The position numbers were made by a program, and so were the translations under genes. Under the pieces are notes generated by a model. The model made no database searches. It was not told the origin of the DNA and saw only the letters and a program-made list of their open reading frames with translations. Shown one piece after another: positions 35,794-51,399 of a DNA stretch of 64,000 bases. Each line of letters begins with the position of its first letter. Position 1 is the stretch's first letter. This DNA comes from a virus: positions 1 to 64,000 of the IMG/VR virus record IMGVR_UViG_3300046168_000026; one strand, 5' to 3'.

Positions 35794-35852
35794 GTAAAGA
35801 TAGTGAATTAAGTTGGTATTGCCAAACTTTAAATGTTAAAATTTTGTTAAAG
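35794..35852 (-). promoter_or_regulatory. TTAACA-N5-TTAACA promoter element, copy D
   Basis: CTTTAACAAAATTTTAACATTTAAAGTTTGG...TATCTTTAC. Confidence 0.7.
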
Positions 35853-47640: not shown

Positions 47641-47979
47641 TTAGATAAAACTTTTAAATAAAGTTGAGGTGTGACCTTCTTCCCACCCTTTATCTTTATA
47701 AAACTGATGTGTAGTAGGAAGGCAATATGTAATTACTTTATATCCTTTTAGATTTTCTTGACACCATTCCCATCTTACATCCCATAACATTTTGTAAATA
47801 CCATTACCTCGGTACTTCTCTTCTACATATGCGTTTGCGAACTTGATGGTATTGTCAGATAAGAATAATAGAGAGTTCCAACCAATAGCTTGATTGTTAT
47901 ATAACGCAATCCATCCACACTCGTCCTTCGGAGTGGGTACAGACTCGGGCAACTTGTAGGGTACTATCGTTATATTCAT
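47641..47979 (-). CDS. GNAT acetyltransferase
   Basis: YV...YRGNGI, FYKDKGW. Confidence 0.75.
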   Translation of the reverse strand: MNITIVPYKLPESVPTPKDECGWIALYNNQAIGWNSLLFLSDNTIKFANAYVEEKYRGNGIYKMLWDVRWEWCQENLKGYKVITYCLPTTHQFYKDKGWEEGHTSTLFKSFI

Positions 47980-48036
47980 TCTCGTTTCTCATAAAGAAAT
48001 AAATATATGGAAAAGTTATTAACAGGTTATTAACAA

Positions 48037-49111: not shown

Positions 49112-49162
49112 ATTATTGATTTATTAATTGACATCTCATTATGGGGAGATGAATACCCTTAG

Positions 49163-49248
49163 TACCGATGGGCGGATTCGAACCGCCACGAACATTACTG
49201 CTCAAAGGATTTTAAGTCCTTCGTGTCTACCAGTTTCACCACATCGGC
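49163..49248 (-). tRNA. tRNA-Leu(TAA)
   Basis: AAGGA CT TAA AA TCCTT; long variable arm; TTCGAAT. Confidence 0.93.
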
Positions 49249-49256
49249 ATCTCGTG

Positions 49257-49330
49257 TGTTCCCAATAGGACTCGAACCTATGACCTAATCATTATGAGTG
49301 ATTTGCTCTAACCAACTGAGCTATGAGAAC
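49257..49330 (-). tRNA. tRNA with CAT anticodon (Ile2 more likely than Met)
   Basis: AATCA CT CAT AA TGATT; no initiator features. Confidence 0.85.
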
Positions 49331-49341
49331 GACAACGATAG

Positions 49342-49415
49342 TGAACGAGACAGGATTCGAACCTGTGACCGTCTGCTTAGAAGGCAGATGCTCTATCCAA
49401 CTGAGCTACTCGTCC
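49342..49415 (-). tRNA. tRNA-Arg(TCT)
   Basis: TCTGC CT TCT AA GCAGA; A20 in D loop. Confidence 0.93.
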
Positions 49416-49482: not shown

Positions 49483-49569
49483 TTTCGTGGACATCAAAGA
49501 TACTAATACTACTACATAGGTATAGACTAATAATAATCCAGCTAACAATTATAAGGTATAGTATATAGA

Positions 49570-49797
49570 CTAATAAAACATTCTATTCCAAGTTAACCAA
49601 GAAGGTTCACTAACCAACTTAGTAGAAAGAACATTCGAAGGAGCAAGTACTACATTTCTCTGAACAACACATCTATTACCATCCTTACTCACACTAACCA
49701 ACTTATTGTCTCCACAATAGTCTTGACCGATAGCTGACCTTAACTCGCCAATCTTATCAAACCCATCAATAGGGTCACTTATACTTAAGTTTATCAT
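49570..49797 (-). CDS. Hypothetical protein
   Basis: ORF with A-rich leader. Confidence 0.5.
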   Translation of the reverse strand: MINLSISDPIDGFDKIGELRSAIGQDYCGDNKLVSVSKDGNRCVVQRNVVLAPSNVLSTKLVSEPSWLTWNRMFY

Positions 49798-49941
49798 AAT
49801 TTTTAATTTTTACTTTTTTAAACACTCAATCGTATCGAGAAGCAATTCCCCCATTGAGCTTGGATATCCTTTTCATATCTCAGGGGAGCTTAATCCCTCA
49901 ACTACTTCGGACCTTCATTGAGCTCTCACTCAATTACAATA

Positions 49942-49998
49942 CTAAGATACGCAAACAATATTGAATTTCCAAACTTTTAATGTTAAATAATTGTTAAG
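49942..49998 (-). promoter_or_regulatory. TTAACA-N5-TTAACA promoter element, copy F
   Basis: CTTAACAATTATTTAACATTAAAAGTTTGG...CGTATCTTAG. Confidence 0.7.
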
Positions 49999-51180
49999 TT
50001 TTCAACAAAGTTATTAACATTATACAGAATGAGCTAGGAATAAGTGGGCTAATTCAGTAGAATACTGGCTCAGAGGGGACTTTCCTATGGACTAAAAAAC
50101 CGACCCCGGTATAAGAACGGCTCACAGGCGACTGTAACTTGCTGATTACCAGTGGATTACACGAAAATACCCGCCCCCCTCGCTCAGTCACATGCGTTCC
50201 TTCGCTCCGTAGGCCTGTGATTTCCTCGTCCACTTCCCCTACCTCATCTGGCTCAGAGGCCTGAATAGGGTTAAATAAGGTTAAATTCTGCCTTGGGTGT
50301 CTCTCCCTATACCTATGTATCCGTATATACTCCCCTTTTTAGCTACTTTTTTTTTATATCACTTTTGCTTTTAGTGTCACCGCAGGGTTTTTTAAACCAG
50401 GCCCCCCCATAAAGATACGAAAAATATTTTAAATGGCCAAATAAAAAGTGTTAAATCGGCAATAAAGTTATCAACATGACACGATGTCAGTTGCGTTGAG
50501 GGCAAAGTTATTAACAATTTTATTAACAATTTAAAGTTATTAACAATTAAATGCTAACAGTATGACATAATGTCCGACTTATCAGGCGGTGACATAACCC
50601 CTTGAGCGTCAACGCTTTAGACCCCTTTAGTTAAAGTAACCCTCGAACATGACATAATGACCGAATTTTTATGGCTAAAAAGGGCAAAATACCCCCTAAA
50701 AATACTTTTCCCTCAGGAAATTTTGGTTTGCCGCGAGAAACGGACTTGTGCCTGTCTATAATTGTGGTAAATTTAGACCCATAGGGGTTATCTAAGTAGA
50801 GTTTAACAGAATTGTGGGAAATGTTAATGATTTAGCGCTGAAATCCCTTTACCTCATCTTATCCCTCATCTTCCAATAAAGAAATAGACGCATTAAATAA
50901 GGTTAAAATTATATGGTGTTTACCATAAAGTGGGAAAAAGTGGTAGAAAAGGGTGGAAAAGTCCACATTTATTTGTCGAGATAATGGAATAGTCGGTTCA
51001 TTACGAAATAGAACGCTAAAAGGATTCCGATAAACTTAAGTAGTAGAATCATACTGATATAAGTAGGTAGAAGAGCATAAAAAAAGTCCTCAAAGACTTG
51101 TCTGAGAACTTGTTTCGATGACTTATATGAGTAAATATTAGGGAATTTTACCCTTGTTAAAAGTTCGTGGGTAATTAAGG
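49999..51180. other. About 1.2 kb non-coding, motif-dense region; candidate origin, packaging site or decoy locus
   Basis: No ORF of 60 aa or more; six TTWTYAACA 9-mers, three TGACA-N3-TG(T/A)C, two IHF-like palindromes, an AAAGTGG 10-bp-period array, C-rich to G-rich switch. Confidence 0.55.
50409..50455 (-). promoter_or_regulatory. Host-type promoter firing into the non-coding G-rich tract
   Basis: TTTAACAC...TTTGG...CGTATCTTTA then GGGGGGG. Confidence 0.55.
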
Positions 51181-51183
51181 ACT

Positions 51184-51399
51184 CTACCCTACGATAATTG
51201 TCTTACCTTGATTCCAGCTCTCTATATGGTATCTGAAGTCGTGTAGGTCGAGAAACTCGTGAACTATTCTCCTCATCTCAGGGGAATTACCATGAATGAT
51301 TTGTGTGTCAAGATAAGGTTTGTCGTACCCTAAAAGGTTTTGCTCTAAAATAGAACTAGCGTCCTTATGTCTTATACCATGTAAATCTATTATCTTCAT
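51184..51399 (-). CDS. Smr-domain-like protein
   Basis: IDLHG...IIHG...NQG. Confidence 0.7.
   Translation of the reverse strand: MKIIDLHGIRHKDASSILEQNLLGYDKPYLDTQIIHGNSPEMRRIVHEFLDLHDFRYHIESWNQGKTIIVG

Follow-up and report, generated by a model that had tools for sequence, protein, structure and literature searches.

What is the function of the longest internal stretch without long open reading frames (ORFs) in the genome of an uncultured marine phage, and why does it carry sequences that resemble binding sites for host proteins? The window analyzed here, meaning the whole stretch of 64,000 nucleotides, represents the first 64 kb of a viral record of 176,264 bp (IMGVR_UViG_3300046168_000026; 97% complete) with a G+C content of 34.5%, in which 206 of the 217 long ORFs are located on the - strand. 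The gap at positions 49798-51183 is the genome's longest internal stretch free of long ORFs; it is flanked by a 71-aa ORF (51184-51399) and a 75-aa ORF (49570-49797), and its near neighbours encode GroEL, a NUDIX hydrolase, a nuclease and Hsp20. A sequence-only reading had described the region as a non-coding kilobase packed with several kinds of sites for host proteins, and had proposed that it serves as a replication origin, as a packaging terminus or as a decoy for host regulators. Our analysis demonstrated that the sites are real, occur more often than expected, are conserved and correspond to classes of sites in the host; host protein binding, the firing of the promoters and the direction of control are what we infer from these matches. 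Since look-alikes of three host sites are found beside promoters of the host type, the phage probably ties its own transcription or replication to the cell-cycle and stress controls of its host, or interferes with them. Among the readings considered, we favor a promoter control region that answers to host regulators, to which we assign a probability of roughly 40%.

Genomic Setting and Conservation of the Gap

No sequence in the GenBank phage collection matched the phage at the DNA level. The nuclease encoded beside the gap is common to eight viral contigs (84-88% identity), and scans with DNA patterns added 14 more marine metagenome contigs as relatives. In all relatives, which form two clades, an ORF-free gap of 1.1-1.3 kb is found at the same place, and the alignments consist of invariant islands separated by variable spacers. 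Because only these islands are conserved, one large structured RNA spanning the kilobase was rejected. The TTATYAACA boxes, the ATGACA-N3-TGWC palindromes and the AAAGTGG array are enriched, clustered in the gap and kept in approximately 20 related marine phage contigs, and their arrangement, with the MraZ boxes followed by the palindromes and TTATYAACA boxes, a promoter and a G-rich core, is common to the two diverged clades (Table 1). One relative, L026, carries an insertion of about 100 nt before the G-run that is very rich in G+C and contains many short inverted repeats; the motif patterns matched no palindromes in L026, although its MraZ block, boxes and core are retained. As side observations, the 71-aa ORF showed a weak match to the Smr domain (E = 4e-4) that stayed under the Pfam cut-off, and positions 1-2463 of the window are also poor in long - strand ORFs, with gaps of 363, 750 and 417 bp and small + strand ORFs.

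Table 1. Positions of predicted features in the gap and on its downstream side.
Feature	Position	Strand	Description
Intrinsic terminator	51077..51111	-	11-bp stem and T-run; terminator scan; closes upstream operon (71-aa ORF)
Conserved 27-aa micro-ORF	50969..51052	-	Present in 12 of 12 relatives examined
MraZ-operator look-alike	50917..50956	+	Two perfect AAAGTGG boxes, 10-bp period; third box degenerate; conserved flank
Two single TTGTGG(T/G)AAA boxes	50760-50772, 50810-50822	+	50 bp apart; repeat search, alignments, motif map
Three hsp20-type palindromes	50649-50661, 50562-50574, 50476-50488	+ (as listed)	86-87 bp apart; GWCA-N3-TGTCAT on - strand
Four TTATYAACA boxes	50468..50545	+	One orientation; probable DnaA boxes; 27-100 bp upstream of P2 -33 element
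Promoter P2, Bacteroidota type	50407..50444	-	TTTGG at 50441, 19-nt spacer, TATCTTTA at 50417-50410
A-rich block, then ATAGGTATA-AGAGAGA block	50300..50362	-	Both conserved (alignments); within predicted transcript
Conserved G+C-rich core	50040..50191	-	No conserved ORF; about 20 contigs
Core: G-run and TATTTTC	50179-50163	-	
Core: CAGCA-loop hairpin	50153-50131	-	
Core: hairpin Hc	50110-50099	-	
Core: invariant GGAAAGTCCCCTCT		-	
Core: hairpin Ha	50067-50055	-	
Promoter P1, full early-promoter repeat	49941..50019	-	TTAACA-N5-TTAACA, TTTGG 49973, -7 box 49949-49942
tRNA-Arg, tRNA-Met, tRNA-Leu genes	49162..49415	-	ARAGORN and Rfam; downstream of gap

The description of the region as non-coding holds only in part, because the 27-aa micro-ORF at its upstream end is conserved. 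Its predicted product consists of a single hydrophobic helix and the C-terminal motif MNRxFxYLD(K/R), the changes among relatives are synonymous and conservative, and its end lies 23-27 nt ahead of the MraZ-box block. The 5' arm of the intrinsic terminator is kept in clade-1 relatives, and the 3' arm together with the T-run is absent from L026, L027, L028 and L038. With a predicted terminator, a putative membrane micro-ORF and two candidate promoters of the Bacteroidota type inside it, the gap is also not inert.

The switch from C-rich to G-rich sequence that had been noted is present locally, the + strand being C-rich at 50100-50250 and G-rich at 50700-51150, and reflects motif content, not a replication-type skew. 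Over the 176 kb the cumulative GC skew falls monotonically with no inflection and thus gave no sign of an origin, which is a weak test because the genes lie on one strand and one-strand transcription dominates the skew. The IHF-like sites that had been reported proved to be at chance level, with 6 matches against 9.6 expected under the strict pattern, 12 against 12.3 under the relaxed one (WATCAANNNNTTR or WATCARNNNNTTR), and one site in the gap. As to the exact repeats, both the 15-mer and the 12-mer exist and are unique to the stretch, but they are lineage-specific: the nearest relative of the phage shares them, and the other relatives have not kept them.

Host-Type Sites in the Phage Gap

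The AAAGTGG array listed in the sequence-only reading was found at 50927, where AAAGTGG-N3-AAAGTGG has its single occurrence genome-wide. The 40-bp block is invariant in 14 relatives and represents the most conserved block of the region; its third box is offset by 1-3 bp, and in relatives the block is always found together with the G-rich core. The TAA spacer of the phage boxes is the spacer typical of Flavobacteriales MraZ boxes. The two single TTGTGG(T/G)AAA boxes, of which the upstream one is retained by all relatives, are located 110-190 bp from the AAAGTGG pair and may represent extra half sites of the MraZ type.

When bacteria were scanned, with one genome per species, for three AAAGTGG boxes at a 10-bp period, at least 120 loci were obtained. 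Among the matches listed, an ORF with the N-terminal motif of MraZ starts at most 300 nt downstream in 107 of 120 loci, with 3-70 bp between array and MraZ, and most of the other 13 listed loci are cut by contig ends; all five ORFs sampled downstream of arrays were assigned to MraZ by Pfam. A MraZ gene was not found in the phage genome, and alignment of the relatives revealed no conserved promoter beside the AAAGTGG block on either strand. Since such a promoter is lacking and P2 is about 450 bp away, the phage block looks like an orphan operator look-alike. At least three AAAGTGG boxes at a 10-bp period with no mraZ-like ORF after them were present in 72 viral contigs (L196-L267), several of which are 130-250 kb in size, compared with 20 in the reversed control, an enrichment that is modest and inflated by related contigs. 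MraZ-type arrays, or iterons resembling them, may recur in phages, and in the literature we found no published case of a phage with a MraZ operator.

Palindromes of the form ATGACA-N3-TG(T/A)C had been placed at 50476, 50562 and 50649 and likened to sequences upstream of hsp20. These positions were correct, and the link to hsp20 was borne out. The motif ATGACA-N3-TGWC occurs four times against 0.49 expected; three of these copies lie in the gap, where two or three are kept in most relatives, and the fourth is located upstream of an ORF called HSP20 by Pfam, as part of a tandem pair that stops about 8 nt before the -33 element; over the whole genome, the - strand motif is limited to these four. 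Among 61 Flavobacteriales genomes, two carry the tandem palindrome, in both cases directly upstream of an HSP20 gene (Pfam), with a tandem spacing of 32-33 nt and with 8-10 nt to the -33 element TTTGG, the same as at the phage hsp20. Given that the tandem palindrome precedes hsp20 in the phage and in two hosts, the palindrome is, judged by this placement, a host-type operator of small-heat-shock genes. The copies in the gap are separated from the -33 element of P2 by 35, 125 and 210 nt.

The third class comprises DnaA-like 9-mers, which had been reported at 49999, 50011, 50468, 50508, 50520 and 50537 and were recovered at these six positions as + strand TTWTYAACA within 550 bp. In the window, TTWTYAACA is present in 26 copies, compared with 10.6 +/- 3.1 expected, and four of the 11 copies of the stricter TGTTRATAAC in the 176 kb are in the gap, where they form the phage's largest cluster. 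No perfect TTATCCACA boxes were found in the region. Relatives retain three or four of the boxes, and in two relatives the canonical TGTGGATAA stands in for some of them at homologous positions. TTATYAACA boxes were also found upstream of the phage early promoter at 35850. In addition, two TTATTAACA boxes, 11 bp apart, were observed at 48016-48035 upstream of a gene for a 112-aa GNAT acetyltransferase (47641-47979, - strand), and this upstream gap looks like another phage promoter with a host origin-type box.

Comparison with host genomes showed that the boxes repeated in the oriC-like gaps of Flavobacteriales are of exactly the variants TTATTAACA and TTATCAACA; these long intergenic gaps are filled with four to ten boxes each. 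In three of the four Flavobacteriales genomes tested, the box-cluster gap coincides with the minimum of the cumulative GC skew and with a switch in gene orientation; in G003, the GC-skew test failed to support the box gap as oriC. Probable oriC regions are located at about 125.1-125.5 kb in G001:C71, at 56.27-56.67 kb in G035:C1 and at 55.9-57.1 kb in G023:C22, and the G001 gap and the syntenic gap of G003 lie upstream of what we take, from N-terminal residues read by eye, to be an rpiB-like gene. In one host the canonical TGTGGATAA occurs among the TTATYAACA boxes. Tandem canonical boxes were absent from five host genomes, and TTATTAACAA as a single site is not enriched genome-wide in the hosts, enrichment being restricted to pairs and clusters. 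Clustered DnaA boxes were not found next to dnaA in the hosts, which is expected because the oriC of Bacteroidetes is usually far from dnaA (PMC4755523). The matches to host oriC gaps therefore place the DnaA-like designation on a better footing than the count of mismatches had suggested. They suggest that TTATYAACA is the oriC box of Flavobacteriales, and it is probably their DnaA box, to which DnaA would bind.

Direct pairs of TTATYAACA, 20-21 bp apart, numbered 20 in 41 Flavobacteriales genomes, compared with one in the reversed control. Eleven such pairs, each from a different genome (among L173, L174, L176 and L310-L321), lie about 100 nt upstream of the gene for HU (Bac_DNA_binding), which suggests that HU is controlled by the protein binding the origin box. 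Likewise, TTATYAACA abuts the first MraZ box in 15 host mraZ promoters of the Flavobacteriales type. The pairs at HU and the boxes at mraZ promoters therefore indicate that TTATYAACA is a promoter element besides an origin element. Three near-identical box pairs separated by CGAAAG, and lacking any ORF closer than 350 nt, were also observed in one flavobacterial genome (G044:C1 at 1931, 278094 and 1729689); these may be located upstream of repeated operons, possibly those of rRNA. In summary, the assertion that the region gathers sites resembling those of host regulators stood for three classes (initiation, division and stress), which were matched to host contexts, and fell for IHF.

Predicted Promoters and the Conserved G-Rich Core

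P2 is a partial copy of an early-promoter element of the Bacteroidota -33/-7 type that is repeated about ten times in the genome. A promoter at the position of P2 is kept in relatives, and transcription from P2 would start near 50403. P1 has one or two boxes of the TTATYAACA type upstream (50011, 49999); its predicted target is the 75-aa ORF in this phage and directly the tRNA-Arg gene in L011 and L012.

Downstream of P2, the A-rich block (50362-50336) is followed by a variable G+C-rich part and then by the core of 150 nt. The core is confined to this phage group, and a covariance-model search of the window and of more distant relatives revealed no second copy. In hairpins Hc and Ha together, five compensatory pairs were counted, compared with 0-1 in slid controls, all five of which trace to a single clade split, and the G-U pairs fit the - strand. 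The CAGCA-loop hairpin and a G+C-rich hairpin before the G-run vary in sequence and have kept their ability to pair. The minimum free energy of the core relative to shuffled sequence gave no thermodynamic structure signal (z = +0.65), and with the Rfam 15 covariance models no match better than chance was obtained for the gap (E up to 10). These results lend modest support to a functional transcript, or to hairpins formed in single-stranded DNA.

Several other candidates were rejected for this part of the gap. A protein hidden in the core was discarded because the frames (59 aa here, 44 aa in clade 2) differ between the clades and are broken in six relatives. An RNA resembling RNase P, SRP or tmRNA, for which GGAAAGUCC and AGAUGA had been considered, was rejected on account of the wrong order of the elements, no P4 partner and no Rfam match. 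The idea that the repeated CUGAGCCAG pairs with 16S rRNA at its 5' end was rejected because clade 2 has a covarying stem in place of the motif. A 13-mer present both in the A-rich block and in a host oriC gap is frequent in A+T-rich DNA and was dropped. As a separate observation, ATACATAGGTATAG (50300-50320), which is part of the predicted P2 transcript, has a near-perfect inverted copy at about 49510-49530 between the 75-aa ORF and the tRNA-Arg gene; the copy is partly retained in relatives, and the two might pair into a processing stem that encloses the unit, or match by chance.

Discussion

In the reading that we favor, a terminator and a gene for a 27-aa membrane micro-protein would be followed by operator look-alikes for three host regulators, and this operator block would lie upstream of P2, a promoter of the host sigma-A type, from which a conserved, ORF-free, G-rich leader would extend toward P1, the tRNA genes and early genes. 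Host regulators bound to the sites would set the strength of transcription of this unit, and its output would track the replication, division and stress state of the host. Such a promoter control region is consistent with the location of the sites, which on the coding (-) strand directly precede promoters of the Bacteroidota type, with the order of sites kept in two clades, and with the occurrence of two of the site classes at other phage promoters (those of hsp20 and the GNAT gene, and the early promoter at 35850). It also agrees with the additional role of TTATYAACA as a promoter element at HU and mraZ in hosts, with a phage that has no MraZ of its own, and with a transcribed core that is conserved, non-coding and equipped with two hairpins showing compensatory changes. 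However, the MraZ block is an orphan remote from P2 with no conserved promoter next to it, the TTATYAACA boxes face away from P2, the reverse of their orientation at host HU promoters, and the palindromes are farther from the -33 element than at hsp20. Moreover, three regulators acting on one promoter would be unusual, and the leader shows no thermodynamic structure signal.

The readings may overlap, and a phage replication origin that is assisted by DnaA and primed by transcription comes second, at a somewhat lower probability. DnaA would bind the box cluster, the P2 transcript would run through the A-rich block into the G-run, an R-loop ending at the U-tract would prime leading-strand synthesis, and the downstream hairpins would aid loading of helicase or primase. 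An origin would be in line with the TTATYAACA clusters that mark oriC-like gaps in most of the Flavobacteriales genomes tested, the largest phage cluster being located here, as well as with the same order of promoter, A-rich block and invariant G-run plus TATTTTC in all relatives, with an RNA that would be G-rich over a C-rich template, and with the position in the longest internal ORF-free gap. However, there are only 4-6 boxes in a single orientation, compared with opposed arrays in host oriC gaps, the local G+C content is 28-36% at its lowest, compared with 11-17% in those gaps, the skew, dominated as it is by one-strand transcription, shows no inflection, and the boxes are also present at other phage promoters. 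We know of no T4-like phage that uses DnaA, and of no role for MraZ or hsp20 operators at origins. A decoy, or sponge, combined with a timer of copy number appears unlikely. Phage DNA copied a hundred-fold or more would drain MraZ, the hsp20 regulator and DnaA from their host targets, with the consequence that expression of the host division operon and of heat-shock genes would change and re-initiation at oriC would be blocked, while phage genes with the same operators (hsp20) would be released, representing a timer that counts genome copies. Such titration could explain why the most conserved element, the MraZ block, has no conserved promoter beside it, and why the palindromes are evenly spaced and placed unlike the copies at hsp20 promoters; the absence of MraZ from the phage, the close match to host sites including the TAA spacer, and the triple AAAGTGG arrays without mraZ in other viral contigs point in the same direction. 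Yet the sites are few per genome, with 2-3 boxes of the MraZ type, three palindromes and 4-6 boxes of the DnaA type, each class of site is linked to ordinary phage promoters as well, the excess of viral arrays over the control is modest, and no precedent was found in the literature.

Even less probable is a free-standing gene for a structured non-coding RNA next to the tRNA genes, for which the upstream sites would be secondary and which could be likened to the stable RNAs of the T4 tRNA region or to ROOL and GOLLD RNAs. The 150-nt core with its own promoter, placed directly upstream of a tRNA gene in L011 and L012, the covarying hairpins and the variable G+C-rich hairpins before the G-run would fit such a gene, but the core matches no Rfam family, folds no better than shuffled sequence, owes its compensatory pairs to one clade split and is limited to this phage group; furthermore, no terminator follows it, and in clade 2 it runs into an ORF. 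The remaining readings together were given very little weight. A packaging terminus (pac or cos), or merely decayed genes, is highly improbable: the long gene-free stretch and phased T-tracts in CCAC repeats might be taken for either, but the record ends elsewhere, no terminal repeat is reported and no packaging-specific feature was found, and decay is contradicted by islands conserved at the base level between variable spacers, with 1-nt indels and no shared frame. As to the functions originally proposed, the skew provides no indication of an origin, and no result speaks for a packaging terminus. The sequence-only reading had not considered the host-type promoters next to the sites, which would drive a conserved non-coding segment and tRNA genes; a sponge accounts for the other phage promoters with the same site types no better than ordinary promoter control does.

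The borrowing of single host factors by control regions and origins of phages is well known; in the literature we found no phage region that gathers look-alikes of host origin boxes, division operators and heat-shock operators. If host proteins bind the gap, it would provide a testable case of a lytic marine phage that reads or jams the cell cycle of its host via DNA sites alone; if the decoy reading were true, host division, stress response and chromosome initiation would be reprogrammed as phage genes are released. On the host side, the presence of TTATYAACA in HU and mraZ promoters suggests a link between replication initiation and division control in a major marine group.

Each class of site can be compared with a known system. 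Similar to mraZ and dcw promoters, the phage has direct (A)AAGTGG repeats at a 10-bp period. In PMC8475190, the MraZ site of Mollicutes is given as a series of AAAGTG[T/G] direct repeats, and E. coli is stated to have 'MraZ boxes' upstream of the dcw cluster (citing Fisunov 2016 and Eraso 2014). In contrast to mraZ promoters, the phage array is accompanied neither by a mraZ gene nor by a conserved adjacent promoter; it has only two perfect boxes, the third being degenerate and offset, and it is located on the strand opposite to the phage genes. The palindromes belong to the GACA-N3-TGTC class of Flavobacteriales hsp20 promoters, which is also found at the phage's own hsp20, but differ from these promoters in the 86-87 bp between copies and the greater distance to the promoter. 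Like the DnaA boxes of oriC and of DnaA-controlled promoters, the phage 9-mers are clustered and one or two changes away from TTATCCACA; unlike those of host oriC, they share one orientation and sit upstream of a promoter. By analogy, the cluster may also be compared with the titration locus datA of E. coli. Finally, the succession of a promoter, an A/T-rich block and a G-run with a T-tract would resemble T4 oriF and oriG, ColE1 RNA II and mitochondrial CSB II, to which the phage, unlike any of these, adds putative operators for host regulators.
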